64,000 bases of DNA from Eubacteriales bacterium (GCA_045651165.1 JAZRRX010000039.1:111448-175447), one strand, 5' to 3'. Shown: positions 9,141 to 35,486, numbered from the stretch's first letter. Numbers and translations are program-made. The notes: generated from the sequence alone by a model not told the origin.

Positions 9141-10646
9141 TTATTTAAGATTATATATCTTTGAATATTTTTCTTCAAGATAATTTGTAAAATATGTGGG
9201 GTCAAATTTTTCACCAAGTGCGCTTTCTAAAAGTTCATCGGGATTTTTCAAGCAACCATATTTCCAAATATGTTCTCTATTCCACTCATTTATAGTAGCA
9301 AAGTTTCCTTCTGCAAGGCATTGTTCAACATCAACATCTTGTTTCATTTTGTGAAGAAGATGTGCACCATAGGCAGAACCTAGTGCATAAGATGGGAAAT
9401 ATCCAACACTACCGCCTGACCAGTGACTATCCTGAAGAACTCCTTCTCTATCGTTGGGAACTTCAACACCCAAATATTCTTTATAGAGCTTCTTCCATTC
9501 AGTTGCTAAATCTTTGACCTCGAGCTCACCACTCATAACTCTCTTTTCAAGCTCGTAACGAATCATAACGTGCAAACAATAGGTCACCTCGTCCGACTCG
9601 GTGCGAATCAAAGAAGGAGTTACCAAGTTTATTGCTTTATAAAGATCGTTTGCTGTATATCCCTTCATTTGTTCAGGGAAACATTCACAAACTTTTGGGA
9701 AAACGTAGTTTACAAATGCTTCGCTTCTACCAAGCAGGTTTTCATAAAAACGGCTTTGGCTTTCGTGAATGCCCATTGATACACCACCATCAAGATAAGT
9801 ATAGGCATAATCATCTTGTGGATTCATTTCATAGAGTGCGTGTCCACCCTCGTGAATTACGCTAAACATTGATGAAGCAAAGTTTTCTTCATCGAAATTA
9901 GTTGTAATTCTTACATCGTAATGCGATCCGATGCTCGTCGTAAAAGGGTGCTCTGTTGTGCCAAGACCACAAATACCAAGATCAATTCCCATTATTTTCA
10001 TGAGTTCTCGAGAGAATTTTTCCTGTGATAATTCATCAAAATAACCGTGGATACAAGAATCATCTACCTGTTTTGTCTCACCAATTTTTTTAATTAGAGG
10101 AACAATTCTTGATTTTAGAGTTGCAAAAAACTCATCACATTTTTCCATTGTTAGTCCCTTTTCGTACTGATCAAGACAGTAATCGTAAGGATGCTTTTCG
10201 GGTGCGCAATAGTGCGCAATTTTTTTATTATATTCAAATATTTGTTCAAGATATGGACGGAATAGTTCAAAATCGTCAGTTTCTTTTGCAGTGTGCCACA
10301 CATCACCTGCATTTACAAGCAATTCTTGATATGCAATATAATCTTCAAGTGGAATCTTTTTCATTTCCTTCATTCCCTTGCAAGCAAGATACACTATTCT
10401 CTGCTCTTTTTCTTCAAGTTCGTTAATATGTGCATCCAAAAATTCAAGCATAGCAACAGTATCTTCGTTGGTTGTGAGATTATATGTTTCTTCACTTAAA
10501 ATTCCCAATGTATGAGCTCTATTGGCTGCGGTTTTCTTTGGAGCAACAGTTGCTCCATCGTAATAAATAATGGACATTGCGTGATTATATGCACTTAGTT
10601 TATTTTGCCAAGCATATAATTTGGCAATAGCTTCTTGTAAATTCAT
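9141..10646 (-). CDS. M32 carboxypeptidase (Taq-like metallocarboxypeptidase)
   Basis: HEGGHALYE (HExxH), HESQSRFYEN and IRTESDEVTY; 501 aa. Confidence 0.9.
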   Translation of the reverse strand: MNLQEAIAKLYAWQNKLSAYNHAMSIIYYDGATVAPKKTAANRAHTLGILSEETYNLTTNEDTVAMLEFLDAHINELEEKEQRIVYLACKGMKEMKKIPLEDYIAYQELLVNAGDVWHTAKETDDFELFRPYLEQIFEYNKKIAHYCAPEKHPYDYCLDQYEKGLTMEKCDEFFATLKSRIVPLIKKIGETKQVDDSCIHGYFDELSQEKFSRELMKIMGIDLGICGLGTTEHPFTTSIGSHYDVRITTNFDEENFASSMFSVIHEGGHALYEMNPQDDYAYTYLDGGVSMGIHESQSRFYENLLGRSEAFVNYVFPKVCECFPEQMKGYTANDLYKAINLVTPSLIRTESDEVTYCLHVMIRYELEKRVMSGELEVKDLATEWKKLYKEYLGVEVPNDREGVLQDSHWSGGSVGYFPSYALGSAYGAHLLHKMKQDVDVEQCLAEGNFATINEWNREHIWKYGCLKNPDELLESALGEKFDPTYFTNYLEEKYSKIYNLK

Positions 10647-10655
10647 ATTTTCTCC

Positions 10656-11726
10656 TTAAGCACAAAAAGTGCTATCAAAATAATATTTTTTATTGTAATA
10701 TATAAATGCAACTTCAACATATTCAATACCTGTGTTTTCTGTTGCGCCAATATAAAGGTTCTTTCTTACAACTGCAACATAAGGTGTGGGATTATAATCA
10801 TATTTGCTTGATATTGTTCCACCTCCGGTAATGTTGCCAAACATTTCTCCCCAACCACCTTCATAGTTGAGATATTCTTGGAAATCATTATAATGGTTAT
10901 ATGTATAGAACAGATATTTTTCGTTAATATCAATTATTTTATCACCATTTTTATCATATCTTGTGTAAACGATACGAGCAGCCCCTCTTGTGATTTTATA
11001 ACCATTATTATAAATAGCTGCGGTATATTTAGGATCACAATCAGTGCCAGTTGTCCCGATATCTATTTCATAATAATCAAGTTCACCACCACATCCTGAT
11101 ATATTAGGAAGCACTGGTTCATAGGGATAGCTATAAGTATTTCCTGAAAAATAAGTATTATTAAGACGAAGATATTTTCCCCAAGGATTACTTGATGGGC
11201 TTCCACTCTTTTTATTTGTATAGTTAGCAGGGATTTCACCGAAAGCAAAAACGTATGCCGCGACCTCTTCTAGAGTAACATATGCTCCGCCTTTAAAAAC
11301 TTTATTAACTACTTCACCATTCGAATTGATTATGTAATATACGTTTCCATCAGAAGAATAGAGGGCACTTGTGTTTCGTATGAATAAGCCGTTTTCCTTC
11401 GGCTGATTTTGTGCAATAGTTGGCTCTTGATCTTGCTCATCTATTGAACCTGACATTAAATAATGTTGTGAACGATAATAAGCATCCCAATAATTTTCAG
11501 CAGGAGTATAGTTTGCATAAAACTCAGTTTTATCAACATTTTTATATGGATCTTCAGCTGGTTCTTCTGTTATATCCATATCGGGATTGAAATTATCTAT
11601 GGGTTGTCGAGTAGTTGTTAAGATTGAGGATTGGGAAGATTCCGTGGTACTATTTTGAACAAATAGATCGCATGAAACCAAGCTCAAAACTACTAAAAGT
11701 ATTAATAGTGATTTCAAAAATTTCAT
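10656..11726 (-). CDS. Lipoprotein with C-terminal barnase-like (N1/T1 superfamily) ribonuclease domain
   Basis: Signal peptide plus lipobox MKFLKSLLILLVVLSLVSC. Barnase-like blocks EEVAAYVFAFGEIPANYTNKKS, YYEIDIG, RGAARIVY and YNHYNDF. Start set to 11726 behind AGGAGA. Confidence 0.7.
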   Translation of the reverse strand: MKFLKSLLILLVVLSLVSCDLFVQNSTTESSQSSILTTTRQPIDNFNPDMDITEEPAEDPYKNVDKTEFYANYTPAENYWDAYYRSQHYLMSGSIDEQDQEPTIAQNQPKENGLFIRNTSALYSSDGNVYYIINSNGEVVNKVFKGGAYVTLEEVAAYVFAFGEIPANYTNKKSGSPSSNPWGKYLRLNNTYFSGNTYSYPYEPVLPNISGCGGELDYYEIDIGTTGTDCDPKYTAAIYNNGYKITRGAARIVYTRYDKNGDKIIDINEKYLFYTYNHYNDFQEYLNYEGGWGEMFGNITGGGTISSKYDYNPTPYVAVVRKNLYIGATENTGIEYVEVAFIYYNKKYYFDSTFCA

Positions 11727-17157: not shown

Positions 17158-19476
17158 ATGATTAGTTTTGAAAATAGGACTTTTAAGCTTGATACATTAT
17201 CAACAAGCTACATTTTTAAAATAGCAGATAATGGCAAGCTCGAAAATCTGCATTATGGACCTTTGCTTCGTACACAGTCATATGATGCATTAGCTCTTAA
17301 AAACACTATAATGCTTGGTAGTTGCGTTGATTATAACACCAAATCAACTATCTCGCTTGATAACGTGCTTCTTGAATACAGTGAGAATGGCAAAGGTGAC
17401 TTTAGACATTCTCCCATAGAAATTATAATGCCCGATGGAACTTATGTAAGTGATTTTGTTTATCTTTCACACGAAATTAACAACTCTGCTTACTCTTCAA
17501 AAGACCTACCAACCGCTTATGGTAAGGCACAAACTCTTACAATCACTTTAAGAGATAAGAAGTTTGCAAGTATTTTCTTAAAACTTTCTTATACTGTTTT
17601 TGAAGAATCCAATGTAATCGTTAGAAATACTGTTATTGTCAACAACAGTTCGTCTGCTATAACTATTAACAAGTTAATGAGCTTCTCACTTGATTTGCCA
17701 TCAACCTATTACAACATTGTAACCTTGAATGGCTCATGGATTAAAGAAGCGCATTTGAATTCCACACCCGTTAGCGAAGGCATTTATGTTAATTCTTCAA
17801 CTGTAGGTGCATCGTCCAACAGACACAACCCTGCATTTATGCTTGTTGGCAAAGGTGCAGATTATTCTCACGGAAATGTATATGGATTTAATCTTATTTA
17901 TTCGGGCAATCATTACTCGGCTATTGAAGGTTCTCCTACAGGAACAACAAGAGTAATGAGTGGTATCAATCCTCATTGCTTTAAATGGGTAATAAATCCT
18001 CGTGAATCCTTTGAAACTCCACAAGCGGTAATGACATACTCTTCAAAGGGCATCAACAAAATGGCACAAAATATGCACGCCTTTGTTAATGAAAATATTG
18101 TTCGCGGAGTTCACAAAGGTAAAGAGCGTCCCATTGTTATAAACAACTGGGAAGCTATGATGTTTAATTTTAACAAACAAAAAATAATTGCCCTTGCTGA
18201 TAAAGCAAAAAAACTTGGCGTTGAGATGTTAGTTCTTGACGATGGTTGGTTTGGTGCAAGAAATAGTGATAAAGCAGGACTTGGAGACTGGATTGTAAAC
18301 ACTAAAAAGCTCCCTGGTGGCTTAAAATCACTTGCAAAAGCTATTAATCATCGTGGAATGAAATTCGGACTTTGGTTTGAACCTGAATGTGTAAACCCAG
18401 ATTCTGACTTGTACAGAGCACATCCTGATTGGGCAATTGCTGTTCCCTCTCGCATACCATCTTTGGGTAGAAACCAAATGGTACTTGACTTAACTCGCAA
18501 GGAAGTTAGAGATTATATTGTTAAATCTGTTGATGATATTCTTTCAAGCGCTAATATAGAATACGTAAAATGGGACTACAATCGTCACATCAGTGATATG
18601 TACTCTGCAACGCTTTCCAATCAAGGTGAATTTTATCACAAATATATTCTTGGTCTTTATGAGGTGCTTGATAGAATTTTCTATCAAAAGCATCCTAATA
18701 TACTCTTTGAAAGCTGTTCATCTGGTGGTAATCGCTTTGACCTTGGTATGCTCTGCTATTCACCTCAAGTATGGACAAGTGATGACACAGACCCTATTGA
18801 GAGACTTGATATTCAAGGTGGTATGTATAATTTTTATCCACCATCAACAATTTCTGCTCATGTTTCGATGTCACCTCACGCACAAACACTTCGTGCAACA
18901 CCTCTATCAACAAGATTCAATGTCGCTTCCTTTGGAGTGCTTGGATATGAGCTTGATTTTGCAGAATTGACACCGGACGAGTTAAAGCAGGTTAAACGAC
19001 AAATAGCTTTTTATAAGGCGCATAGAAAAACGTTCCAATATGGAAAATTTGAATTTGTAAATGTGGATAATCCCAGTCAACTCTCTTGGCAAATATCTAG
19101 CAAAAACGAAATAATTGCTGGCCTTTTCCAGAAAAAAACATGCGCCGCTCCCTATCGCGACCGTTTGACAATTCCCTCTGCTAATCCCGATAAAAAATAT
19201 AGCGTTGAATGTGTTAAGCAAAATCTTCGCATAAAAACTTTTGGTCCTCTTATCAATCACATCACCCCAGTAAAACTAAAGGCAGATGGATTTATTTTAA
19301 GAACCATAGACAAACACTTTTCACTCACTGACGGTCACGAATCATATGAATGCTATGGTGATATTCTTAATTTCGGAATTAATCTTGAGATGCAATATGA
19401 GGGTACTGGCTATAACGAAAACATCAGATTGCTTGGCGACTTTGGAAGCAACCTGTATTTAATAAAGGAGAAATAA
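17158..19476 (+). CDS. Alpha-galactosidase, GH36
   Basis: LVLDDGWFGARN and VKWDYNRHI motifs; 772 aa. Confidence 0.9.
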   Translation: MISFENRTFKLDTLSTSYIFKIADNGKLENLHYGPLLRTQSYDALALKNTIMLGSCVDYNTKSTISLDNVLLEYSENGKGDFRHSPIEIIMPDGTYVSDFVYLSHEINNSAYSSKDLPTAYGKAQTLTITLRDKKFASIFLKLSYTVFEESNVIVRNTVIVNNSSSAITINKLMSFSLDLPSTYYNIVTLNGSWIKEAHLNSTPVSEGIYVNSSTVGASSNRHNPAFMLVGKGADYSHGNVYGFNLIYSGNHYSAIEGSPTGTTRVMSGINPHCFKWVINPRESFETPQAVMTYSSKGINKMAQNMHAFVNENIVRGVHKGKERPIVINNWEAMMFNFNKQKIIALADKAKKLGVEMLVLDDGWFGARNSDKAGLGDWIVNTKKLPGGLKSLAKAINHRGMKFGLWFEPECVNPDSDLYRAHPDWAIAVPSRIPSLGRNQMVLDLTRKEVRDYIVKSVDDILSSANIEYVKWDYNRHISDMYSATLSNQGEFYHKYILGLYEVLDRIFYQKHPNILFESCSSGGNRFDLGMLCYSPQVWTSDDTDPIERLDIQGGMYNFYPPSTISAHVSMSPHAQTLRATPLSTRFNVASFGVLGYELDFAELTPDELKQVKRQIAFYKAHRKTFQYGKFEFVNVDNPSQLSWQISSKNEIIAGLFQKKTCAAPYRDRLTIPSANPDKKYSVECVKQNLRIKTFGPLINHITPVKLKADGFILRTIDKHFSLTDGHESYECYGDILNFGINLEMQYEGTGYNENIRLLGDFGSNLYLIKEK

Positions 19477-21479: not shown

Positions 21480-21555
21480 CTAGGTGTAGCTCAGCTGGGA
21501 GAGCGCTACCTTGGGGTGGTAGAGGCCGCAGGTTCAAGTCCTGTCACTTAGACCA
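21480..21555 (+). tRNA. tRNA-Pro (anticodon GGG)
   Basis: Hand-folded cloverleaf. Acceptor CTAGGTG/CACTTAG, D-arm GCTC-AGCTGGGA-GAGC, anticodon stem CTACC/GGTAG with loop TTGGGGT, T-arm GCAGG-TTCAAGT-CCTGT, encoded CCA. Confidence 0.85.
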
Positions 21556-21558
21556 GAA

Positions 21559-21597
21559 AAAACCTTGAAAACATTGAGTTTTCAAGGTTTTTTCTTT
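21559..21597 (+). terminator. Terminator after tRNA-Pro
   Basis: 14-bp stem AAAACCTTGAAAAC/GTTTTCAAGGTTTT, then T-rich sequence. Confidence 0.8.
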
Positions 21598-21601
21598 TGC
21601 C

Positions 21602-21645
21602 TGTTACGCAGTTTTTAAGCGGGGTGTTACACAATTTGTTACGCA
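21602..21645 (+). repeat. Triple TGTTACRCA module A (candidate integrase arm-type sites)
   Basis: TGTTACGCA 21602-21610, TGTTACACA 21625-21633, TGTTACGCA 21637-21645. The same three-site layout recurs at 46893-46935 and 58786-58828. Confidence 0.6.
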
Positions 21646-21691
21646 GATTTGTATAATGCCCTAGCTTTTTTATTGTGTCTTTGTACATACT

Positions 21692-24345: not shown

Positions 24346-24577
24346 AATGGCCTCCGTTCCTTCCAAATTACCCTTCTATAATCATATTAGTTCATATGTC
24401 AAACGCCATTTATTGAAGTTACATAATTATATCACATATCATCTGTTTTTTCAATACAAATAATCAAATGCAAATATATATTTAATTTGCAACATTTCTG
24501 CTAACAATTCCCTTTTGGCGTTCGCGGGTGGGAGAATTCGCGATATAATTAGCTTAACGTTTTATGGGAGGTTAATT

Positions 24578-24850
24578 ATGAAGTCGATACTTGAGGAGTT
24601 GTTTTACGGAAATATATGTCCTAACACGGACTGCAGGGGCAATGATGAGCAAACGAAGGAGCTTATGGTTTACATAGCCGATCATCGCAATACGCTCAAG
24701 GGTGAACTCACGGAAAAGCAAAAGGAAATTTTAGAAAAGTTTGATGATTGTTGGAACGAGCTTACTGATATTAACGAGCGCGAGATATTCATTTATGCCT
24801 TTAAGCTTGGTGCTCGGATTGCCATTGAAGTCCTCTCAAGCAAGGAGTGA
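24578..24850 (+). CDS. Small acidic helical protein directly upstream of the integrase
   Basis: ATG at 24578 behind GGGAGG; ends 10 nt before int. The position would suit a directionality factor, but no HTH was recognised. Confidence 0.5.
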   Translation: MKSILEELFYGNICPNTDCRGNDEQTKELMVYIADHRNTLKGELTEKQKEILEKFDDCWNELTDINEREIFIYAFKLGARIAIEVLSSKE

Positions 24851-24859
24851 GGTGGCATT

Positions 24860-26035
24860 ATGACAGGTTGTGTTGCGGAGCGTAATGGTGTATATTACGT
24901 TCGGTTAAGTTATTACGATAGAAATCACAAAAGGCGGGACAAATTCATAAGCACTGGGCTTTCGGGTCGTGGTGCTAAAAAGAAGGCAACTGCTATGATC
25001 GAGCAATTGATTGAAAAATACAAGTATCTTGAGAAAAGTGATCATCCATCCAAGATGGCTGACTATCTAATAATGTGGAAAAATCTTCGCAAAAGCGAGG
25101 TTGCTGAAACCACTTATGACGGATATCACACCTATATTGATAGGCACCTTGTTCCCTATTTTAGAGATCTCAATTTGAATATTCAAGATATCACTGCAGG
25201 TCATATTTTTGATTATGTCAATTATCTTTCTAATGACGGTGGCAGAAAGGATAACAAGATTGGCGGGCAATCTAACACCTCAATTAGAAAGATTATCAGT
25301 ATTCTTAGACAGGTATTTGAATATGCCGTTCTATATGGAGATATCAAAATCAACCCTGCCCTTCAAGTGCCCTTGCCCAAGAAAACCAACAAAAAAGATG
25401 AGCGTCAAGTTTTCTTGACATCCGAAGATGCTCAAAAGATGCTTGACGCTTTTCAAAACGAGGAGATTGGGCCTATTGTTTATGTAACGCTTTATTATGG
25501 ATTAAGAAAGTCCGAAGCGCTTGGTCTTCGTTGGCAAGCCGTTGATTTTGATGCTAACACTATCACGATAAATCACACTGTGGTTGGCAACGGTCATATT
25601 GTAAGAAAAGATACCACCAAGACATACACAAGCCGACGAACTTATGAGTTGCTCCCCGATGTTAAGGCGTTACTTTTAAAACTAAAAGACCAACAAGATG
25701 ACTACAAGCGCAGGCTTGGTTCAGGCTATCATATGAACGATTATATATTCAAGAATCCTAATGGCGTACCCTACCGTCCCGATAGCCTCACACGGAGTTT
25801 TAAGCGCGCCCTGGCTCGTCACGGACTTCCTCAAATGCGCTATCACGACTTGCGACATTCGACCGCCTCTATCCTTGTCGATAAAGGTTGGGACATCAAT
25901 GATATAAAGGAGTGGCTCGGTCACGCTGACATCTCAACCACGGCGAATATTTATGCGCATATTAGCCATAGAAAGAAAGTCTCGCTCGCTAAAAGCCTGA
26001 ATGGGTCGCTGAGTTTTGAGCAAAAATCTGAATAA
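24860..26035 (+). CDS. int: Tyrosine-type site-specific integrase
   Basis: ALGLRWQAVDF (Arg I), YHDLRHSTASILV (H-x-x-R), LGHADISTTANIYAH (catalytic Tyr region); 391 aa. Confidence 0.9.
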   Translation: MTGCVAERNGVYYVRLSYYDRNHKRRDKFISTGLSGRGAKKKATAMIEQLIEKYKYLEKSDHPSKMADYLIMWKNLRKSEVAETTYDGYHTYIDRHLVPYFRDLNLNIQDITAGHIFDYVNYLSNDGGRKDNKIGGQSNTSIRKIISILRQVFEYAVLYGDIKINPALQVPLPKKTNKKDERQVFLTSEDAQKMLDAFQNEEIGPIVYVTLYYGLRKSEALGLRWQAVDFDANTITINHTVVGNGHIVRKDTTKTYTSRRTYELLPDVKALLLKLKDQQDDYKRRLGSGYHMNDYIFKNPNGVPYRPDSLTRSFKRALARHGLPQMRYHDLRHSTASILVDKGWDINDIKEWLGHADISTTANIYAHISHRKKVSLAKSLNGSLSFEQKSE

Positions 26036-26600: not shown

Positions 26601-26975
26601 ATGGAAATTAATAAAACTGCAGAAAAACAAATTAATAAAACCACTGAGACTTTAAGAAAAGAATTAGAAACGATGAATAGCTCCGAACTACATGATATGT
26701 TCATGGTTTTCTACAAGCTCAACTACCGCCATGGAAATATGATTTATGGTGATAAATTCAATGAGTTTCTTGAATCTTTCACTAGCAATCCTTTTAGGCT
26801 CAATGAAGATAAGACCTTCAAAAAGGAATTAATAGATAACCTAATCAGCTACAACACTGAACACATGAGTCTACTCACTGCAAGTCTTCTTATAAAGAAG
26901 AAGTTTACTATTGAAGAGGTAGTAGATAACTACTACGCCAATGTTGATGCCTTTGGTAATGATATGTTTTATTAA
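26601..26975 (+). CDS. Hypothetical protein
   Basis: 124-aa ORF with an upstream AAGGAAG RBS; no recognisable domain. Confidence 0.5.
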   Translation: MEINKTAEKQINKTTETLRKELETMNSSELHDMFMVFYKLNYRHGNMIYGDKFNEFLESFTSNPFRLNEDKTFKKELIDNLISYNTEHMSLLTASLLIKKKFTIEEVVDNYYANVDAFGNDMFY

Positions 26976-27029
26976 ATAAAGTAGGGATTGATAGGACAAA
27001 ATATCAATATTGCTTTTACTGATCATAAG

Positions 27030-27066
27030 AGTTGGTGCTAGTCCAGGCACCAACTTTTTTCTTTTT
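27030..27066 (+). terminator. Rho-independent terminator
   Basis: Stem AGTTGGTGC/GCACCAACT followed by TTTTTTCTTTTTT. Confidence 0.8.
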
Positions 27067-27132
27067 TGTTTAAAAATTTGCGCTAAATTAATTGAAGAAT
27101 GTGTAAAGTCATAGTCAGAGGTGGGTCTAGAT

Positions 27133-27624
27133 ATGGAAGAAGTTTATAAAATGAAAGACGCGCCACAGACATCTAAAATGATATTAAAATACAACCTAGA
27201 CAGGTTAGACAAAAACAAATTTAAGATGTTTTATAGCATACTGGTGCACTATTGGGCCAACTATAAATACTTTATCGATATACGTAGTTTCTTCAACCTA
27301 TGGTGTGAGCTTAACGAACTTTGTCATGAGGTGGATAAAAGCTTCCCTGACCAATATTATGATCATAATTTGGTGAAGGATTTCTGCATCGAGCATCCGT
27401 ATTATTTTATAGATATCCTCGACCTAGGACTTGTCAAAAAGCTCTTCTGTCAACACCTTAATGACCGAATTGATATACTTTCAGAGGTAGTTAATAAACT
27501 ATACACAGAAGGCCTAAAAGCCACCTACGAGTACTCTAATGAGGCTCTAAGATTGACTGAAGATGTTGATAATTTGGTCGAAGAAACAAAAAAACTTTTA
27601 AATGCCTTTAATGTTCCCCAATAA
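27133..27624 (+). CDS. Hypothetical protein
   Basis: ORF with its first ATG at 27133 (the track starts at a GTG at 27121); no recognisable domain. Confidence 0.5.
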   Translation: MEEVYKMKDAPQTSKMILKYNLDRLDKNKFKMFYSILVHYWANYKYFIDIRSFFNLWCELNELCHEVDKSFPDQYYDHNLVKDFCIEHPYYFIDILDLGLVKKLFCQHLNDRIDILSEVVNKLYTEGLKATYEYSNEALRLTEDVDNLVEETKKLLNAFNVPQ

Positions 27625-27650
27625 AGGAAATAAATTTTTAGTCACAAAAA

Positions 27651-27686
27651 GCATTGAGAACCATATGAGGTCTCAATGCTTTTTTA
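27651..27686 (+). terminator. Rho-independent terminator
   Basis: Stem GCATTGAGA/TCTCAATGC, 11-nt loop, TTTTTT. Confidence 0.75.
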
Positions 27687-27870
27687 TTTCCACTACCACG
27701 CCCTCTCTCAATCTTTCAAAACAATGCAGTTTGTATCCTATAAATAAAACCATTTTTAACTACCCTATTTATTTCTATCTCAACTCACAAAAACAACTTT
27801 TATTTTACTAACAAAAGACAGTTTTCTGTAAAGTTTATTTAACAAATATAAAGAGTAAATATATCAAAGA

Positions 27871-27900
27871 TAATTTAAAGTTTCAAGAAACTTTAAATTA
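27871..27900. repeat. Perfect 30-bp palindrome next to an AT-rich tract (candidate origin/operator)
   Basis: TAATTTAAAGTTTC-AA-GAAACTTTAAATTA, followed by TTATTATT-type low-complexity sequence (27901-27940). Confidence 0.5.
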
Positions 27901-28025
27901 AAATATTATTTTTTATTATTATTCTTTATTATTATTTATGTTTAATTTACAGACCAAATAAGTTCAAAATATGAACCACTATAGTTTGATTTTTAGTCAT
28001 ATGTATTTAAAATTGAATTGTTTTT

Positions 28026-28067
28026 TATATATAAAAATACACCTGCACATATTCAGTGCAGGTGTAT
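28026..28067 (-). terminator. Terminator of the RepA_N-like gene
   Basis: 12-bp stem ATACACCTGCAC/GTGCAGGTGTAT; the T-run on the minus strand is the plus-strand A-rich 28026-28037. Confidence 0.75.
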
Positions 28068-28071
28068 AAAG

Positions 28072-28458
28072 TTATTCAAATGGCATTTCTTCATCGTCAT
28101 CATTGGCATTTGAGTGCAACTCAAAATCATTATACAGTTTATTAACTGCACTCATGTCGATTTTAAAGTATCTCTTTTTAGGCATACCATGATGCTTTAT
28201 TTTAATTATACCATATGACTCAAGCTCTTTACATGCCACTAATTGCTGATGCTTGCTAAGCCCTGTGTTATTATACATATTTTCAATAGTGCTATAGAAC
28301 CAACCTCCTGACTGCAACCCACCGCGCTCATTCCAATATGTATATTCAGAATAAATTTCAGATAACATAATTGCAGTGTTAAGATTGAATCGCCTGATAA
28401 ATGGTCGTGGCAGTCTTATAAAGTCATATTGGAACATTTTTTCTAAATTGTTTTTCAA
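28072..28458 (-). CDS. RepA_N-like winged-helix DNA-binding protein (replication-initiator N-terminal domain only)
   Basis: FIRLPRPFIRRF ... GGWFYSTIENMYNNTGLSKHQQLVACKELESYGIIKIKHHGMPKKRYFKI follows the RepA_N / replisome-organiser pattern; only 128 aa. Confidence 0.5.
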   Translation of the reverse strand: MKNNLEKMFQYDFIRLPRPFIRRFNLNTAIMLSEIYSEYTYWNERGGLQSGGWFYSTIENMYNNTGLSKHQQLVACKELESYGIIKIKHHGMPKKRYFKIDMSAVNKLYNDFELHSNANDDDEEMPFE

Positions 28459-28531
28459 TTACTTTATACCTCCGTGTTTAGTATCTATTCATTTTCTCAA
28501 AGACAAAACTAAATTGATTGAAGAAATCTCA

Positions 28532-28569
28532 AGACATAGCTATAAATAGATCTTTTTATAGCTATGTCT
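28532..28569. repeat. Perfect 15-bp inverted repeat hairpin
   Basis: AGACATAGCTATAAA (28532-28546) / TTTATAGCTATGTCT (28555-28569). Lies between the LRR gene stop and the RepA_N-like gene start; could be a terminator or an operator. Confidence 0.5.
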
Positions 28570-28780
28570 GAAAGCAAATTATACTATACACTAGCAATCA
28601 ATTACCACCGTAGAAACAACCAAATCTTTAGCATTTGTAAAAACGTTGTAAGTATTAACCGCATAGTGTACAAATATATAATTCTAATCTAAAAAGTTTT
28701 GAACATTACCGTCTCCCTCCATAATTAGAAGGTAAAGTCTTTTCTTATTAACTATGAAGAAAATTCTACTCGATTTTATA

Positions 28781-31117
28781 TCAAAATACCAACCCATTAA
28801 ATGTAGCGGGGTTATCGAGTGGCTCCAATGTTTCCACCACCTCACCGTTTTCGGTGATTTCCAGTGTTACACGATGTCTCATTTTTTCCTTGACATACTG
28901 TTCCATATATGAACCACGTGGTGAGCGAATAACAATACCGTTATAACAAGAAAGGCAATAAACATCCTCCACATTTATGACGCTTGCGGGAATCAGGACA
29001 GTGCCATTCACATCAGAAAGTGCAAAGACACCAAGCGTTTCGGTACCGTCGGGCACGGCATAGAAATCCTCCAAAATTTTGGCATGTACAAGCTTTTTAC
29101 CGTCTTTCGTAAATATAGAACCATCCACCGACTTATAATTAGGGTTGTCGGTGGACACCTCCGCCTCATAGAACAATCCGCCCCACTTGTACTGAGGTTC
29201 GATATGCGTAACAGAAGAAGGAATACATAGCTTTTCAAAAGATCCGTCAGATAGTTGGAAAGCACTGCCACCGATCGACGATATGCTCTCCGGCAAAACT
29301 CCTTGAATCTCTACCGCACCTGGTGCATAAGTCAAAAGCTCTCCTTGGCGACTGCACAGATGTCCTTCTATTGCCACGTATTTGGGATTTCTCTCCGAAA
29401 CAACAAATTCTTTAAGGTCTGGTGCCGGACCGTCAAAGCCCTCGCACCAAAGACGTGTCATAGTTGATGGAATTACAACCTTTTTGCATTGTGATAAATT
29501 AATACGATCATTGGTAGTGGTTACACCTTCCGGAAAAACAAGCTCATCACCGAACTCGCCTAACTGCCTAACGTTTCCATGCTCATCAACTATCATAATG
29601 CTCTGCAAATCTATAAGATATTTATCGGCATTCTCATCTAGTATAGGAGTTTTCATAAAATCTTCAATCTCATACTCCTTGATAACATGAAATTTCAAAC
29701 CGTGCTTATCACAGTATTGTTGAGCAGCACTTCCCTCTGCTCCTCCAATCACTATGTCATTATCGATATACGGACACTCAAAACCGCAAATCTGCACAAA
29801 GAATGGATATGTGTCATCAGGGAATCCCTCAACGCCTGCGGCAAAATAGATATGACGCAGGTCTCGGGCATTAATAAATGCACTTTCATTGATTGATACA
29901 CAATTATTTCCCACCTTCAAGCACTGCAAATTTTTGGCATACTCAAAAGCGCATTCCCCAACATTACACACGCGTTCGTCAACTTCGTAATAAAGCTGTG
30001 GTTTTGCAGGACAGTATTTTACGAGTGTTTTATAATTACTTGTAAAAAGCACATCATCCTCTGCAACATACCATTTGTTGTTTTCGTCAACCGTGATACT
30101 TTCCAAATTCGGGCACCCGTAACTATAGGAGTGATTTTTACCACAAAACGCCTCGGGGGTGATTTTTTGCACATCAGCACCGATGTGTACGCTTTTCAGA
30201 TTTGGATAGTCATCAAAAGCGAGATCCGAAAGCACGGTAATACTGTCGCCAATAATGATTTTCTCGATTTTTTCTCGACGGTATCGATTAATTTTTCGAT
30301 TGGCATTTTTGATAACAATATCCGTCATCGTATTCTGAACGCACGGAGCAAGAATCATAAGCACTCCGTCAACAAATCTAATACTATAACCCTTGTCGCT
30401 CTCATCAATGAAAAATTCAGTTTCACATTCAATCTGTTCACGTAATTTTCTGCGAAGCTCCTCTTCGCTTGCAGCATAGAAGCTCTCCACCTCGTCTTCA
30501 TCAACTTCAACAAAGTCTATGTTTCGTTCGTTACAGTATTCCTCAATAACAGAACCTTTCGCACCACCGACAGTGCTAATGGGATAATAGCGTCCGCCGT
30601 CATCACCACCTACATCAAATATCTCACCTTCAAGCTCGGTGACTGTTGGTGGGATATAGATTGTTCTCAGATTAAAATATCCGTCACTCATCAAACCACG
30701 ATTTCCGATTTTAGTAATGTTTCTGCCAATATCAATGCGAAGAAGCTCTGGCGCATCTGCAAAGCAATCCGCGGCAATTTCAGTTGCGAAATCAGGAATC
30801 GTATAACGCGACTCCCCTTCCTTATTGTACTTCACGACTATCTTTCTATCCTTGGAAAACATTACTCCGTCTTCGATAACATAATTTTCACTTATATATT
30901 TCTTTCTATATTCCTCAATGGTTGATTTATTGGCAGGCGAATACTCGTCTTCAAACTTCAATGGTTCCGCTTCCCAATTACAATGAGGGCAAACAAACCA
31001 ATCGTCAAAGGTCTCGTCGCCGCAAATAGGACAGCTGATAATATCTCTACCCAAATCAAGGCACATTTGATATTCGTCCTTGCCGATTATTTCAATTAAT
31101 TTTTTCTTTGTTGTCAT
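28781..31117 (-). CDS. Cytoplasmic zinc-ribbon plus BspA-type leucine-rich-repeat protein
   Basis: N-terminal CPICGDETFDDWFVCPHCNWEAEP. Recurrent LRR-type units (IPPTVTELEGEIF, IPSTMTRLW, IPSSVTHIE, IPASVINVE). No signal peptide or TM helix seen. Confidence 0.65.
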   Translation of the reverse strand: MTTKKKLIEIIGKDEYQMCLDLGRDIISCPICGDETFDDWFVCPHCNWEAEPLKFEDEYSPANKSTIEEYRKKYISENYVIEDGVMFSKDRKIVVKYNKEGESRYTIPDFATEIAADCFADAPELLRIDIGRNITKIGNRGLMSDGYFNLRTIYIPPTVTELEGEIFDVGGDDGGRYYPISTVGGAKGSVIEEYCNERNIDFVEVDEDEVESFYAASEEELRRKLREQIECETEFFIDESDKGYSIRFVDGVLMILAPCVQNTMTDIVIKNANRKINRYRREKIEKIIIGDSITVLSDLAFDDYPNLKSVHIGADVQKITPEAFCGKNHSYSYGCPNLESITVDENNKWYVAEDDVLFTSNYKTLVKYCPAKPQLYYEVDERVCNVGECAFEYAKNLQCLKVGNNCVSINESAFINARDLRHIYFAAGVEGFPDDTYPFFVQICGFECPYIDNDIVIGGAEGSAAQQYCDKHGLKFHVIKEYEIEDFMKTPILDENADKYLIDLQSIMIVDEHGNVRQLGEFGDELVFPEGVTTTNDRINLSQCKKVVIPSTMTRLWCEGFDGPAPDLKEFVVSERNPKYVAIEGHLCSRQGELLTYAPGAVEIQGVLPESISSIGGSAFQLSDGSFEKLCIPSSVTHIEPQYKWGGLFYEAEVSTDNPNYKSVDGSIFTKDGKKLVHAKILEDFYAVPDGTETLGVFALSDVNGTVLIPASVINVEDVYCLSCYNGIVIRSPRGSYMEQYVKEKMRHRVTLEITENGEVVETLEPLDNPATFNGLVF

Positions 31118-31256
31118 TTTTTATTCCTTTCTGCCATTATGGCATTAAAATTTGTATTATATTATTGAGTTTTCTTTTTTTGTGGGGCCATGGTACTATA
31201 CTATAGCCCGTCACAATACATATTTTTGATTTTTGTTTTATCCTTTTATTAATTTA

Positions 31257-31598
31257 TCAACTGCATTTAAGTGTCATTATAGTGTTTTCTGGGAAATTAT
31301 TCTCAATCACAAATTCTGCCAATGTATCGAAATATTCAAAAATCTCTTCGGGCACATCGGTTTCCATAATAATCTCAAAGTTATAGTAATTGTCTCCAAC
31401 CTCCCATACACTAACAAGAAACTTATCGGGACCTTTTACGAGGTCGTTTTCAAAGTAGTATCTTATCATTCCACCCGTATCATCAAGACAAGTAGGATAT
31501 ATCCCGTCTAGCGGAACGATTCGATACATCGCTCCTTCGCATTTAGTCTCCACCTTAATATTAGTCCACACAAAATGTTTTGTCTTACTTATTTTCAT
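31257..31598 (-). CDS. Hypothetical protein
   Basis: 113-aa ORF co-directional with its neighbours; no recognisable domain. Confidence 0.45.
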   Translation of the reverse strand: MKISKTKHFVWTNIKVETKCEGAMYRIVPLDGIYPTCLDDTGGMIRYYFENDLVKGPDKFLVSVWEVGDNYYNFEIIMETDVPEEIFEYFDTLAEFVIENNFPENTIMTLKCS

Positions 31599-31687
31599 TT
31601 TATTAATTCTCCTTATTATAAATTAAATAGCGATTTATGATACTAAGCATTTGTTTTGAAATCATGATAGTATTTTACTTTCATATA

Positions 31688-32200
31688 TTAGAAGCTCAAT
31701 CCACCAAATTTTCTAGGGGCACAAGGGCTTGCTATAGGGGGCTGAACTACTTCTTTTTCACATTTTTTTGCCTCATCAGTAGAGTTATCATCCGGCCATT
31801 CTGGAAGATCTTTCTGCTGATTGCGACTTAAGCAAAACTCAACCTTTGCAATCGTACGACCTTTGTATTCAGCGTGTACCACGCGAACCGCACCACGTTT
31901 ATGCCACCAATCAACAAGCGCATCTTGTTCATCTTCTCTGATATCAAACGAATTGAAAAACTCACCAATAAGCTGGTTCGTGCGAGCCGGATTCTCGGGG
32001 TTATACCAAATATAATGTCTAAGTTTGTGAGTGAATCCATTTACATAAAGCTCAATTTCGAGCCCTTTTCTACCATTGCTAGCCATTGTCTCACTTACGA
32101 GATCAATTTGAGCTCTATAATCTCCCTCAGGAAGAAGGTTTGATTTGCCAGTCTGGCTTTCGTTATACTGATTTGAGTTGTAATTCCATGTAAATCCCAT
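31688..32200 (-). CDS. DUF669-like phage-associated protein
   Basis: LLPEGDYRAQI, NGRKGLEIELYV and KRGAVRVVHAEYKGRTIAKVEF follow the DUF669 pattern as remembered. AAAGGAG RBS. Confidence 0.5.
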   Translation of the reverse strand: MGFTWNYNSNQYNESQTGKSNLLPEGDYRAQIDLVSETMASNGRKGLEIELYVNGFTHKLRHYIWYNPENPARTNQLIGEFFNSFDIREDEQDALVDWWHKRGAVRVVHAEYKGRTIAKVEFCLSRNQQKDLPEWPDDNSTDEAKKCEKEVVQPPIASPCAPRKFGGLSF

Positions 32201-32317
32201 GATAATTTCTCCTTTAATATATTTTTGATTTTATTGCTTTTGATAATTGAATTAAATATAATCAGCAGATCTTTTTATTTCAAATTACTTTTTTGTTAAT
32301 GTTAATTTAATAAGTAG

Positions 32318-32731
32318 TTATTTTTGTTTAATATAATTAACTTCCTTCCACTTTGGAAGTTTCTTTTGATATTCTTTATCAAGACAGAAAGCGATCTTAG
32401 CAAACATTTTACCCTGATATTGTGTATGTGTTATTCGAATCGCTCCCGTTTTGCGCTTCCACGAATCTAGGTTATCCTGCTCACTATAGTTAATATCAAA
32501 CGAGTTATATAATGCTTTGAGTCGATTGTTAGTGTGCTGCTCGTTACTTTCATCCAAACAAATGTGGTAAGTAAGTTTTCTAGCGGTGCCGCTAACATCA
32601 AGGACAATTTCAAGTAGATCATTGTTGTCACTATCGACTGTAATAGATGCTCGGTTAATTCGAACTCTGTAGTCCCCCTCTCTCATTATAGGGAAATTGG
32701 TATCAGTAATTAAATTTAAATAGTGATTCAT
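32318..32731 (-). CDS. DUF669-like protein, tandem paralog
   Basis: Shares EGDYR.RI, FNSFDI..EQD, GA.R..H..Y.G...AK..FCL and LP.W blocks with the 31688-32200 product. Start set to the ATG at 32731 behind GAGGT. Confidence 0.5.
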   Translation of the reverse strand: MNHYLNLITDTNFPIMREGDYRVRINRASITVDSDNNDLLEIVLDVSGTARKLTYHICLDESNEQHTNNRLKALYNSFDINYSEQDNLDSWKRKTGAIRITHTQYQGKMFAKIAFCLDKEYQKKLPKWKEVNYIKQK

Positions 32732-32749
32732 AGTTATAGACCTCATTTC

Positions 32750-32888
32750 ATTAGTAAAGTAATAGAGTAAATAATATAGGGGGTTATAAGATAGGTTTGG
32801 ATATGATATAGTATGGGTATAGGTAGGGAGAGAGGAGAGATGGGTAATAAAGATTGTATGAAATATAAATATTTAATAAAAAATGTAG
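32750..32888. other. 139-nt tract completely lacking C on the plus strand
   Basis: Direct reading: the last C is at 32749 and the next at 32889, with only three C up to 32971. G-rich purine runs such as GGTAGGGAGAGAGGAGAGATGGG. Confidence 0.9.
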
Positions 32889-33084
32889 CGTAAATAGTAA
32901 TTTGGGGATAAGTGTGGTTAGTGGATTTGCTAGTTTACGGTGATTTTTTAGTAAATAATATATTTATTTTTCAAAGAGCAAAAAAATGGGCAATTTTTAT
33001 ATATAGGGACCTCCACTGGACCACATATATATTATACAAAATGGGAGGTTTACTTTTATAGTCGCGTTGCGACCATTTTTATAA

Positions 33085-33120
33085 TAAAAAAAGCAAGCGA
33101 TGAACCTCGCTTGCTTTTTT
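33085..33120. terminator. Bidirectional terminator
   Basis: A-run, stem AGCAAGCGA/TCGCTTGCT, T-run; 13 nt downstream of the minus-strand stop at 33133. Confidence 0.8.
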
Positions 33121-33132
33121 CTGCTATTCTAT

Positions 33133-33909
33133 TTAAAATAATGGTTCGCACCCATTTCTTTCTAAAGTGTCATTTATTTCATGTATAATAAATCTTCTCG
33201 AGCTATTACATTTCAAAATAGCCTCTATAACCACCTCTTCTTTTTTATTGCGTCGAAAATCATATCCAATACTCTCTAGTAATCTTTTTGCATCTTCATA
33301 ATCAAGTTCCAACGCAAAACACAATCTAAATAAAATCCTACGGGAAACTGTTCCATATTTTTCTCTTCTTATTGAATTAAAAGTATCAATAGATACTCCA
33401 TAAGTTGTGGTTAAAGAATCTTTAAATTGCTTTTTTAAAGCACCCCTGGTCTTTTTTCCATCTTTATACTTGTCATAATATTTTTCAAGCAGTTCATCCA
33501 AAACATTATAAAATGATGTTTTTACTTCTATGTTTTCTATGGCAATATAGTTTGACATTGTTGTATCTTGGCCTACTAAAAAGCACTTATCACCATCAAC
33601 TATTTCATCCGAGCGATAAGTATCTTTTACATATTGGTCAATCCAAGCGAATATTTGTACTCGAGTATTAATCAAATCCATTACAAAATATTCTTGATTT
33701 GTTGCATAAGGAGTGGAGAAATTAGCCATCAAATCATCATAGTTACGAGTTCTCTTTTTTATGGCTACTTTGCTTCTATCCGCAAATCCAGCTTTTTTCA
33801 ACAAGTCTTCTATTATTTCAATATCCATATCACTGCGAAAAGCCCTGAGGTTCTCCATACAGTATTTGCAAACAATATAATCTTCTTCTATTGTCCATCT
33901 TTTTGCCAT
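33133..33909 (-). CDS. Putative DNA-binding protein (SANT/Myb-like N-terminus, XRE-like HTH C-terminus)
   Basis: N-terminal KRWTIEEDYIV (W-T-x-E-E-D) and C-terminal FNSIRREKYGTVSRRILFRLCFALELDYEDAKRLLESIGY. Confidence 0.4.
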   Translation of the reverse strand: MAKRWTIEEDYIVCKYCMENLRAFRSDMDIEIIEDLLKKAGFADRSKVAIKKRTRNYDDLMANFSTPYATNQEYFVMDLINTRVQIFAWIDQYVKDTYRSDEIVDGDKCFLVGQDTTMSNYIAIENIEVKTSFYNVLDELLEKYYDKYKDGKKTRGALKKQFKDSLTTTYGVSIDTFNSIRREKYGTVSRRILFRLCFALELDYEDAKRLLESIGYDFRRNKKEEVVIEAILKCNSSRRFIIHEINDTLERNGCEPLF

Positions 33910-33929
33910 AACATGAGCCCCCTAATAAA

Positions 33930-34029
33930 TTTGGTACAAAGATAGTATATCATACTTTTGGTACTAATTCAATATACAAATATCTTAAAATCAGTACCAA
34001 AAGAAACATTTGTGAACAAAGTACTAATT
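33930..34029. promoter_or_regulatory. Cluster of TTTGGTAC / GTACTAATT repeats upstream of the serine recombinase (res-like or operator sites)
   Basis: TTTGGTAC at 33930-33937 and 33957-33964 (the latter followed by TAATT), inverted GTACCAAA at 33994-34001, and AAAGTACTAATT at 34018-34029. Confidence 0.45.
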
Positions 34030-34126
34030 TTTATCAAAAGGGGCTCCCTTTTAGCTCAAAACACGACATAATATAGGTATAGAAAGAAACTTTAGTTTGA
34101 TTTAATACTGAAAGGAAGCTTATATT

Positions 34127-34825
34127 ATGATCTACGCTTATTGTCGTGTTTCAACTACACATCAAAGAATTGCTAGGCAGATTACCAACATTACTGCCGT
34201 GTATCCAAACGCCACCATTATTCGTGAGTTCTACACCGGAACGAAACAGGACCGCCCTAATTGGAATAAGCTCATGCATATAATTAAAAAGGAAGACACT
34301 ATCGTTTTTGATAGCGTCTCCCGTATGAGCCGTAATGCCGAAGAAGGCTTCAAAGATTACAAGATGCTATATGAATTAGGAGTACATCTCATTTTTCTCA
34401 ACGAACCATTAATAAACACTTCCGTCTTCGACTCAACACGTAATAACCTATTGAGTGTCAATGTCGAAACTGGTAATGAGGCGGTAGATAATTTCTTTAA
34501 AGGAAATATTGAGTTAATCAATAATTTCCTAATGGCACTCGCTGAAGAGCAAATCAAGACCGCATTTGACCAGGCAGAAAAGGAAGTCACAGACCTTCAC
34601 TCAAGAATATCTCAAGGTATCCGAGAAGCTAAGAAAAATGGAACACAGATAGGCCTAGCCAAAGGCACTTCCCTCACAACCAAGAAATCGCTTGATTGCA
34701 TCGCCATCATCAAAAAGCACTCAAAAGATTTCGGTGGTACTCTCGATGACCCTGATGTAATGAAACTCTGCGGTTGCTCCAGAAATTCTTATTATAAATA
34801 TAAAAAGGAAGCAAAGTCAAATTAA
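34127..34825 (+). CDS. Small serine recombinase (resolvase/invertase family)
   Basis: MIYAYCRVSTTHQ (catalytic Ser), VFDSVSRMSRN, C-terminal HTH-like tail; 232 aa. Confidence 0.85.
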   Translation: MIYAYCRVSTTHQRIARQITNITAVYPNATIIREFYTGTKQDRPNWNKLMHIIKKEDTIVFDSVSRMSRNAEEGFKDYKMLYELGVHLIFLNEPLINTSVFDSTRNNLLSVNVETGNEAVDNFFKGNIELINNFLMALAEEQIKTAFDQAEKEVTDLHSRISQGIREAKKNGTQIGLAKGTSLTTKKSLDCIAIIKKHSKDFGGTLDDPDVMKLCGCSRNSYYKYKKEAKSN

Positions 34826-34835
34826 GGAGGACATT

Positions 34836-35030
34836 ATGGACAAGGTTAAAATTGGAGATACCATTAAAATCATCAAAATGGAAGGCGAACCTCACTACAC
34901 CTACCGAGAGGGTGTAGTTACTCACATCGATGACGCAGGTCAAATACACGGAACCTGGGGTGGTTGTGCTATCATTCCATGGGTTGATACTTATATAGTC
35001 TTAAACAATAACATCAAAAAAAGAACTTGA
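34836..35030 (+). CDS. Small DUF4314-like protein
   Basis: IGDTIKIIKMEGEPHYTYREGVVTHIDDAGQIHGTWGG pattern; 64 aa; 10 nt after the recombinase gene. Confidence 0.45.
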   Translation: MDKVKIGDTIKIIKMEGEPHYTYREGVVTHIDDAGQIHGTWGGCAIIPWVDTYIVLNNNIKKRT

Positions 35031-35054
35031 CCATTTGAGTCAAGTTCTTTTTTT
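35015..35054. terminator. Bidirectional terminator
   Basis: A-run, stem AAGAACTTGAC/GTCAAGTTCTT, T-run; between convergent genes. Confidence 0.8.
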
Positions 35055-35060
35055 ACCTTA

Positions 35061-35486
35061 TTAAATTAATATGCCATTACAATGATCCACCTCGTGTTGG
35101 ATGATCTGCGCTGTCCAGCCGGTGTAGGTTTTGATGCGCATTTGCATTTCAAGAGTTTGATATCGCACCTTGATGGTATTATATCGCTTGCACTTGCGTG
35201 GGCCACCGAGTAGCGACAAACAGCCCTCTTCGGTATCGTACGCGCCGTCCTTCTTGATGATTTCGGGATTCAGCATCACGGTGTACGTAGGAGCTCGTCC
35301 GCTCTCGTCGAGAAAGGCGATAATGCGCTTGCGCACACCGATCATATTCGCAGCCATACCGACACAGCTTTCTCTGTGCGCTATCAGCGTGTCGAGCAAG
35401 TCGTGTGCCACCTGCAAATCTTCTTTCGTTGCAACCTCCGACTTTCCTGCAAGAAATATCGGGTCGTGCATTAATTCCTTAATCAT
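35061..35486 (-). CDS. def: Peptide deformylase (short, divergent motif 1)
   Basis: GMAANMIG (variant of GxGxAAxQ), EGCLS, HEVDHCNG; 141 aa. Visibly more GC-rich than its neighbours. Confidence 0.85.
   Translation of the reverse strand: MIKELMHDPIFLAGKSEVATKEDLQVAHDLLDTLIAHRESCVGMAANMIGVRKRIIAFLDESGRAPTYTVMLNPEIIKKDGAYDTEEGCLSLLGGPRKCKRYNTIKVRYQTLEMQMRIKTYTGWTAQIIQHEVDHCNGILI

Follow-up and report, generated by a model that had tools for sequence, protein, structure and literature searches.

The window, that is, the whole 64-kb stretch of DNA that was analyzed, contains one tRNA gene found by both ARAGORN and Rfam, a tRNA-Pro(GGG). Between 20 and 64 kb of the window, no Rfam family other than tRNA was matched. 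Repeat analysis adds three partial copies of tRNA-Pro, one ending at 47069 and two occupying 52252–52295 and 58955–58999. The intact gene and its partial copies are referred to here as att1 to att4 (Table 1). The layout is that of a tRNA island, with an intact tRNA at one end, tRNA fragments in direct orientation at 47030, 52252 and 58955, and an integrase gene (int) inside. An earlier reading of the same DNA (the original prediction) had recognized three att sites. With the copy at 52252–52295 added there are four, and they delimit three segments.

The first of these sites, att1, is read as attL, in which a chromosomal 5′ half would be joined to an island-borne 3′ half, and att4 is read as the outermost attR. 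At two positions att4 differs from att1 and att3, and at both it agrees with the tRNAs of relatives, which fits a displaced chromosomal piece. The 5′-half copy at att2 belongs to the P arm of the island. The sole sequence common to all four att sites is the anticodon loop, TTGGGGT, and identity between the junctions breaks at this loop: the 5′-half copy ends, and the 3′-half copies begin, with these seven nucleotides. TTGGGGT is referred to as the core, and crossover probably takes place within these 7 bp. With the stem CTACC/GGTAG on either side in the tRNA, the arrangement has the classical geometry, in which inverted core sites enclose an overlap of 7 bp.

Table 1. Features of the tRNA-Pro array, with positions counted from the first nucleotide of the window
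Feature	Position	Strand	Details
att1, intact tRNA-Pro(GGG), read as attL	21480–21555	+	ARAGORN; Rfam tRNA, 61 bits
Anticodon loop TTGGGGT in att1	21511–21517	+	Flanked by the anticodon-stem inverted repeat CTACC/GGTAG
Terminator hairpin between tRNA and module A (P′ leader)	21556–21597	+	Sequence reading
Module A (putative P′ arm)	21602–21645	+	Sites 21602–21610, 21625–21633 and 21637–21645; +91 to +134 from core
Degenerate fourth, inverted site by module A	21650–21658	−	TGTATAATG, compared with TGTGTAACA in relatives; three mismatches
DUF6809 gene, directly upstream of int	24515–24850	+	Pfam, 1.8e-25
Tyrosine integrase gene (int)	24860–26035	+	Predicted beta3-alpha domain, 1–55; SAM-like core-binding domain, 67–123; catalytic domain, 185–369
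Module B (putative P arm of the 25.5-kb island)	46893–46935	+	Sites at 46893, 46915 and 46927; −170 to −128 from core
Hairpin between module B and the tRNA 5′-half copy	46957–46992	.	Read from sequences
att2, 40-nt perfect tRNA 5′-half copy	47030–47069	+	From 2 nt upstream of the tRNA through TTGGGGT (47063–47069)
Pseudo 3′ half, a diverged inverted copy of the tRNA 5′ half	47070–47116	+	With 47032–47069, an imperfect palindrome of ~85 nt
Lone site TGCTACGCAA	47176–47185	+	+113 from att2 core; left arm of the integrase-less segment 47070–52251
att3, perfect tRNA 3′-half copy from TTGGGGT	52252–52295	+	Repeat analysis
Remnant P′ leader right of att3	52296–52375	+	Hairpin and TTTATTTATCAATACTTTAAGGGCATTTTGGAGCTTTCTCCAAAATGCCCTCTTTT; by alignment, nearly identical to the leader of L001 and L002
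Module C (putative P arm of an integrase-less segment)	58786–58828	+	Sites at 58786, 58808 and 58820; −169 to −127 from core
att4, displaced chromosomal tRNA-Pro 3′ half, then terminator	58955–58999	+	Two differences from att1

Gene Content of the Segments

The segment between att1 and att2 (25.5 kb) opens with PIN_12 and DUF7391 genes on the minus strand, followed by a DUF6809 gene and the only tyrosine integrase gene of the window. After int come DUF1810, small ORFs, an LRR protein, a resolvase-like gene and a peptide deformylase. Next is a defense block made up of HEPN, GmrSD, four Dcm methylases, an LlaJI-type endonuclease and an AAA_5 protein, and a small HTH gene adjoins module B. Both remaining segments are without an integrase: att2–att3 (5.2 kb) encodes Fic, a trypsin-like peptidase and an ECF sigma/DUF4367 pair, and att3–att4 (6.7 kb) carries sugar-metabolism genes.

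Part of this content forms a backbone conserved in related loci (window 26601–35486; L004–L015 and L030), namely DUF6809, int, three small ORFs (26601, 27121 and 28072), two paralogous ORFs (31688 and 32318), the resolvase-like gene, whose protein has 232 aa, and Pdf. There are two hot spots for cargo, the interval between the P′ module and DUF6809 and the interval between Pdf and the P module. The defense cargo in them varies, with RM, GmrSD, HEPN and PIN in the window and a Dnd-like system in L030. DUF6809 lies beside int in every related locus (22 loci by tblastn), and its protein is a candidate excision or regulatory partner. No match to this protein was found in PHROG or NCBIfam, and a literature search returned no paper mentioning DUF6809.

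Two other features of the right-hand part of the window deserve mention. Directly past the att4 terminator lies the remnant of a large serine recombinase (59105–60238, minus strand), truncated at its N terminus, with Recombinase, zinc-ribbon and DUF4368 domains and no resolvase domain; nor was such a domain evident in any frame upstream of it when the three-frame translation was inspected by eye. Within att2–att3, six tandem stem-loops (49318–49640) sit between minus-strand ORFs, the trypsin-like one at 48351–49193 and another at 49655–50086. Their loops are conserved as TTTTTAGTAC or TTTTTATTAC, many are followed by GGGAG, and their stems differ in sequence with complementarity kept; they have no Rfam match.

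A Clustered Motif beside the att Sites

The 9-mer TGTTACRCA has nine exact matches in the window, compared with 0.99 expected, and none of 100 dinucleotide-preserving shuffles of the window reached nine or more. Eight of the matches form three clusters on the plus strand (21602, 21625 and 21637; 46893, 46915 and 46927; 58786 and 58820), while the ninth is a stray on the minus strand at 29205, within the LRR gene. The middle site of module C, at 58808, reads TGCTACGCA and has one mismatch to TGTTACRCA. It matches TGYTACRCA, the family consensus of the relatives described below. Each module site is followed by a purine, which gives the refined 10-mer TGYTACRCAR. This version has ten matches in the window (0.88 expected), all of them on the plus strand and all within 170 nt of a tRNA-Pro anticodon-loop copy; the stray at 29205 is lost and one further lone site, at 47176, is gained. 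A similar lone site also occurs in the metagenome contig L031. If one mismatch to the 9-mer is allowed, there are 30 matches against 29 expected and hence no overall enrichment, so the signal resides in the exact, clustered sites. Among the A, B and C types, the spacers and flanks differ, and the 9-mers and their spacing are kept.

The original prediction had described three such modules in one orientation, with a conserved spacing of 22–23 and 12 nt. An exact motif search confirms the position and orientation of every site, the one at 58808 with its single mismatch, and the start-to-start spacing proves to be 23/12 nt in module A and 22/12 nt in modules B and C. The proposed motif, TGTTACRCA, is indeed enriched and clustered, but its consensus is better given as TGYTACRCAR. 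The distances to the tRNA fragments were likewise accurate. Module A, placed about 47 nt downstream of the tRNA, starts 46 nt past the tRNA end at 21555; module B ends 95 nt before the 5′-half copy (47030–47032), and module C ends 126 nt before the 3′-half copy at 58955, both as predicted. The ends of the fragments are, however, a less suitable reference point than TTGGGGT, since the difference between 95 and 126 nt arises solely because the B arm also holds the tRNA 5′ half.

The P arm of att3 has no TGYTACRCA site. It carries TGTATCAAC twice, 13 nt apart, and ATATTAACAAATA twice, within 52094–52116 and 52180–52215, at positions comparable to those of TGYTACRCA in modules B and C. These repeats are probably the arm sites of another integrase, one that is absent from the ~19–64 kb annotated. 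On the other side of att3, unrelated or decayed sequence takes the place of the module expected after the remnant P′ leader.

Readings of the motif as parS, a DnaA box, cre or a LexA box were ruled out on sequence, and the matching genes are absent from the island.

Relatives Selected by Their Integrase

Homologues of the integrase number in the thousands, and the best 120 listed are 85–100% identical to it. A scan of one genome per species by integrase alone yielded 16 loci (77–99% identity), all from uncultured Eubacteriales/Clostridia gut MAGs. These 16 loci are the only unbiased sample; the metagenome contigs discussed in the next section were selected by the motif. Fourteen of them have the full triplet with the same internal spacing, one has two sites, and one, a short contig, has none. 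In these 14, the triplet lies between a tRNA-Pro gene or 3′ half on its upstream side and DUF6809-int on its downstream side.

In most relatives, a fourth, inverted site (TGTGTAACA) occurs 3–4 nt past site 3. The distance from core to P′ module ranges from 88 to 150 nt among relatives, since one or two terminator hairpins may follow the tRNA. In locus L004, 94 nt are inserted between sites 1 and 2.

The most divergent loci, L014 and L015 (integrases of 77% identity), target tRNA-Pro(CGG), with TTCGGGA as the core, and keep the triplet as TGCTACACA-N13-TGYTACRCA-N3-TGCTACRCA. Retention of the same triplet at another tRNA and core indicates that the motif follows the integrase rather than the target. 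L015 is a complete, single-integrase island of 9.6 kb with a module on each arm. Its left part consists of the tRNA (9374–9450), the P′ module (9545–9603) and DUF6809-int (9704–11179), followed by cargo, and its right part of the P module (18883–18925), the core at 19050 and a displaced 3′ half. Module C aligns with the P arms of L015 and L050, and the alignment takes in the GTT that separates sites 2 and 3. In L050, the P module, core, 3′ half and P′ module are found together on one contig of 2572 nt.

Relatives Selected by the Motif

A scan of metagenome contigs with the triplet pattern, in which selection was by the motif itself, produced 67 loci. Manual re-reading divided them into ~32 tandem 12-mer satellites, ~27 A-type arms, 10 B-type arms and one unclassified locus, L034; scripted sorting had recognized 25 satellites and left ~7 more among 34 “A-like” matches. 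Outside satellites, the triplet occurs almost only in A or B arm contexts across the metagenome and viral contig collections, with L034 as the one unclassified case. Since the pattern scan of viral contigs gave tandem 12-mer satellites only, there is no sign of the islands being phages.

A-type arms have the spacer GTTTTT-N-GGGG and a tRNA-Pro 3′ half upstream, while B-type arms read TGTTACGCAATCACTCAAGYTTTGTTACGCAGGGTGTTACGCA and, at the position equivalent to 46957–46992, have a hairpin of other sequence. Eight of the 10 B-type contigs are long enough to include TTGGGGT, which lies 171–172 nt after the module start and is preceded by the full tRNA-Pro 5′ half. In L030, a B-type arm is linked to a window-like backbone (resolvase-like gene and Pdf), followed by defense cargo. 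Homology among B-type arms starts ~24 nt upstream of site 1, and that among A-type arms ends ~25 nt past site 3 or 4, with variable cargo beginning directly on the island side of these limits. These limits, ~25 nt outside the modules, make the modules the outer edges of a conserved att region of ~360 bp. The P arms that unrelated elements have at this tRNA-Pro core (L002, L004, L007 and att3 of the window) are free of TGYTACRCA. Since the A-type contigs had been chosen by motif, an information-content profile of their arms is not counted as evidence.

The Integrase and Its N-Terminal Domain

Pfam recognizes only the SAM-like core-binding and catalytic domains of the integrase, which leaves residues 1–66 outside any Pfam domain. 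In an isolated-domain model (pLDDT 87), the ~60 extra N-terminal residues form three antiparallel strands followed by a helix (E2–8, E11–19, E25–35 and H39–53). The AlphaFold model of the full-length protein is poor (pLDDT 60), so the N-domain model is the usable one. The arm-binding domains of lambda Int and Tn916 Int have this topology, a three-stranded sheet plus a helix. The alignment of the protein to the PHROG 1 integrase starts at residue 8. Among PDB sequences, a Staphylococcus aureus integrase, Xer-type recombinases and Tn1549 Int match it best, and Foldseek matches of the full-length model include Tn1549 Int (E 4e-8) and full-length lambda Int.

An assignment of the N-domain to one of the known arm-binding families was attempted and given up, as Pfam, phmmer/profile and Foldseek searches were all without a significant match. 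Specifically, Pfam gave none at E up to 10, arm-binding families included; phmmer and profile searches of PDB sequences returned spurious matches only; and the best Foldseek values were E 0.6 against the PDB and E 0.06 against BFVD, neither of them significant. Several of the top, weak BFVD matches are phage integrases, aligned at their N termini. Judged from the model, membership of the N-domain in the known arm-binding fold is plausible. Among eleven aligned sequences, including those of L014 and L015, the N-domain is 71–80% identical to that of the window, which is in line with an invariant motif.

The Modules as Probable Arm-Type Sites

The modules are quite probably arm-type sites of the tyrosine integrase encoded at 24860–26035, and would serve the insertion and excision of a family of defense islands at tRNA-Pro in uncultured gut Clostridia. 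The original prediction had also read them as a P/P′ layout, and this reading is now supported by their position, the P-arm distance, the co-occurrence with the integrase and the absence from unrelated P arms. All modules are on the element side of their junctions: A lies inside the island past the rebuilt tRNA, B after the last gene of the island, and C inside the right junction. On the P arm, the distance between module and core is nearly constant (170 nt for B, 169 nt for C, 167 nt in L015 and 171–172 nt in eight B-type contigs). The motif is distinct from the overlap and occurs on both arms, within ~200 bp of the core. Because the sites start 22–23 and 12 nt apart, or approximately two and one helical turns, they would face one side of the DNA. 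The earlier suggestion that module C marks an integrase-less arm that is still usable is a reasonable one, given its match to the P arms of L015 and L050.

A reconstructed attP would span ~360 bp and comprise the P triplet (about −170 to −128), the core, the tRNA 3′ half with its terminators, and the P′ triplet (about +90 to +190), which in relatives would usually be followed by the fourth, inverted site. In B-type attP, the tRNA 5′-half copy would lie between the P triplet and the core. Islands are proposed to insert by recombination across the 7-nt anticodon loop of tRNA-Pro genes. The N-terminal beta3-alpha domain would bind the TGYTACRCAR sites, while the core-binding and catalytic domains would bind the anticodon stem-loop, bridging arm and core as in lambda-type intasomes. 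Integration would rebuild tRNA-Pro at attL from the 3′ half supplied by the island and, with B-type arms, would also create a second complete tRNA copy at attR. Such a second copy at attR is seen in L057 and L060.

In the array of the window, recombination of att1 (A) with att2 (B) would excise the 25.5-kb island, and recombination of att1 (A) with att4 (C) would release all 37 kb of the array, leaving the original tRNA restored. The arms of att1 and att4 are cognate (A and C); the att2–att3 segment has only the lone site at 47176 and a foreign P arm, and the right segment has lost its P′ module. Which protein binds the sites, where exactly the crossover falls and whether the array is active at present are matters that we infer from sequence.

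Several findings count against the interpretation as arm-type sites of this integrase. These include the lack of any significant match of the N-domain in Pfam, the PDB and Foldseek, and the variation of the P′ distance (88–150 nt) together with the insertion inside the L004 module. The core-to-arm distance is generally regarded as constrained in a lambda-type architecture. In addition, the conserved backbone has at least seven other genes, and any DNA-binding product among them is a candidate binder.

Alternative Explanations

One such alternative is that an accessory island protein, either an RDF or an architectural protein (e.g., the product of DUF6809 or of a small ORF after int), binds the sites and shapes the intasome or its direction. 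In the 22 loci, linkage to the modules is as tight for DUF6809 as for int, ORFs 26601, 27121 and 28072 are conserved as well, and the RDF of ICEMlSymR7A is known to bind within attP (PMC11963761). Nevertheless, this explanation is unlikely, as it would deprive the extra N-domain of the integrase of a ligand; reading of the island arms by eye revealed no other repeated motif resembling arm sites. Moreover, equivalent triplets stand at the outer edge of both arms, unlike RDF sites, which are usually on one arm only, between the arm-type sites and the core. It is distinctly improbable that the core-binding and catalytic domains recognize the modules as accessory, core-like sites, in the manner of the extra IntI1 sites in attI1. 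To be sure, TGYTACRCA has GCTAC in common with the left core half-site (GCGCTACC), a resemblance that also weighs against the arm-site interpretation, and TGTTACGCA is present in an IntI1-bound attI1 substrate (PMC2668188). Sites 2 and 3, however, start 12 nt apart in direct repeat, which would be tight for two full C-shaped clamps, and a core-like function leaves the separate N-domain without a role. Nor is the enzyme an integron integrase, scoring 67 bits with the NCBIfam integron integrase model (TIGR02249) against a cut-off of 265. In the literature, TGTTACGCA co-occurs with “integrase” only in integron attI1 oligonucleotides (PMC2668188), a co-occurrence taken to be coincidental.

In the minimal islands L015, L010 and L082, the P′ module lies 100–150 nt upstream of DUF6809-int, as would an operator of that promoter, and autoregulation of the ICEMlSymR7A integrase through attP binding is documented (PMC11963761). 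That the P′ module is chiefly an operator, with the P-arm copies secondary, is very improbable all the same: in the window and most relatives, 1–3 kb of opposite-strand cargo separates the P′ module from DUF6809-int, and the P-arm modules, 20 kb away, keep their distance to the core and not to a promoter. An operator role could exist alongside arm-site function. Hardly any credence can be given to the notion that the repeats are functionless and conserved merely as young copies of one another. Many relatives are close, with integrases 85–99% identical, but the 9-mers and their spacing have outlasted the divergence of spacers and flanks among types A, B and C, the sites persist at another tRNA in the lineage of 77% identity, and homology stops just outside the modules.

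Comparison with Known Systems

As arm-type sites, the modules have much in common with those of lambda Int (P1, P2 and P′1–P′3 in an attP of ~240 bp), being short repeats on both arms, no more than ~200 bp from the core and unrelated to the overlap. The three adjacent P′ sites are also alike, as is a heterobivalent integrase with a small N-terminal domain, which is predicted in the present case. In contrast to lambda, the motif is another one, the six principal sites of the two arms all point the same way, insertion is into the anticodon loop of a tRNA, and no significant match links the N-domains.

A second comparison is offered by IntS of ICEMlSymR7A, for which five P/arm-type sites (TGKTGGTATC) within a 283-bp attP are all required for integration; binding of this integrase also affects int transcription (PMC11963761). 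Both systems have a tyrosine integrase, several arm-type repeats, an attP of ~300 bp and an int gene near attL, and a link between arm binding and int expression may be shared as well. ICEMlSymR7A differs as a proteobacterial conjugative element with an experimentally supported RDF, whereas neither conjugation genes nor an RDF were recognized in the window island, where the cargo consists of defense systems.

Tn1549 Int provides the best structural match for the core-binding and catalytic part of the integrase. In the case of Tn916 Int, an N-domain composed of a three-stranded sheet and a helix binds repeats in both arms of the transposon. No sequence or Foldseek link connects the Tn916 N-domain to that of the window integrase, and Tn916-type elements differ further in that they are not tRNA-specific and have non-identical coupling sequences.

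Among the genomic islands of the Islander collection, the anticodon-centered class is the commonest class at tDNAs, tandem arrays at one tDNA are known, and a 5′ fragment at the junction is the rarer case (159 of 3919 islands) (PMC4383910). The window array resembles islands of this type in having the tRNA regenerated at one end, a direct-orientation fragment at the other, and a crossover in the anticodon loop. It differs in that only one of three segments has an integrase and one junction has a 5′ fragment, and in that a B-type arm includes the whole 5′ half, so that the reconstructed attP contains a complete tRNA-Pro.

CIMEs, a concept tied to the accretion of ICE- or IME-derived elements, are att-flanked segments without an integrase that lie beside an integrase-bearing relative and could be mobilized by it in cis. 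The integrase-less, att-flanked segments of the window similarly adjoin an integrase-bearing island that could mobilize them. Unlike CIMEs, no conjugation or mobilization genes were seen here, and a full cognate arm (module C) is present only on the outermost segment.

The integrase lineage is an undescribed one. The mechanism itself is well known, and the conceptual gain is not a new mechanism. What is gained is a testable, sequence-level definition, consisting of a reconstructed attP of ~360 bp (two triplets and an anticodon-loop core) and a putative recognition motif, for a lineage that carries restriction-modification, GmrSD, HEPN, PIN and Dnd-type defense cargo in uncultured ruminant-gut Clostridia. 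Where metagenome assemblies are fragmented, the motif in combination with the tRNA-Pro core makes it possible to set the limits of these islands and of their cargo hot spots, and to predict which pairs of junctions are still able to excise.

A Palindrome at att2-Type Junctions

In the window and in five B-type contigs (L031, L040, L043, L046 and L071), the place of the 3′ half after the core is taken by a diverged, inverted copy of the 5′ half of the tRNA. When five sequences were folded, four of the palindromes gave −40 to −56 kcal/mol (z −4.2 to −6.7), and that of L040 was unremarkable (−29.7 kcal/mol, z −0.5). The outer stem covaries with the local tRNA variant, reading CCAGCTGAATTACACCTA in the window and CCAGCTGCGCCACACCC elsewhere, and contig-to-contig homology ends directly after the palindrome. 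Extension of the palindrome into an inverted copy of the P arm was considered and rejected, inverted homology being confined to ~18 nt and a loop-proximal ACCxCAAG. A pattern scan for the pseudo 3′ half in viral contigs was without matches.

The palindrome may represent the P′ end of some partner element, one that inserts without restoring the tRNA, for which tRNA-dependent lysogeny offers a comparison (PMC10865867). A bolder proposal, which we regard as doubtful, is that a single integrase serves an accretion array of three segments, two of which no longer have their own, and that the att2-type junction is selected and not debris. If so, the palindrome could neutralize or insulate the orphan tRNA 5′ half left by insertion of a partner that does not rebuild the tRNA, and a neighboring island whose reconstructed attP holds a whole tRNA-Pro would repair the gene.

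Further Arrangements in Relatives

Past the attR of tRNA-Pro(CGG) islands, L050 and L015 (19140–19260) possess a fragment like the 3′ end of another tRNA, GGTTCAGAATCCTGTCATTTT, and in L050 an A-type leader and module directly follow it. This fragment suggests either a second junction nearby or the use of another target. Repetition of a different kind is found in L013 (5990–7050), where a unit of ~524 bp occurs twice in tandem downstream of tRNA-Pro and contains a partial tRNA 3′ end, a triplet module and three more TGYTACRCA sites.
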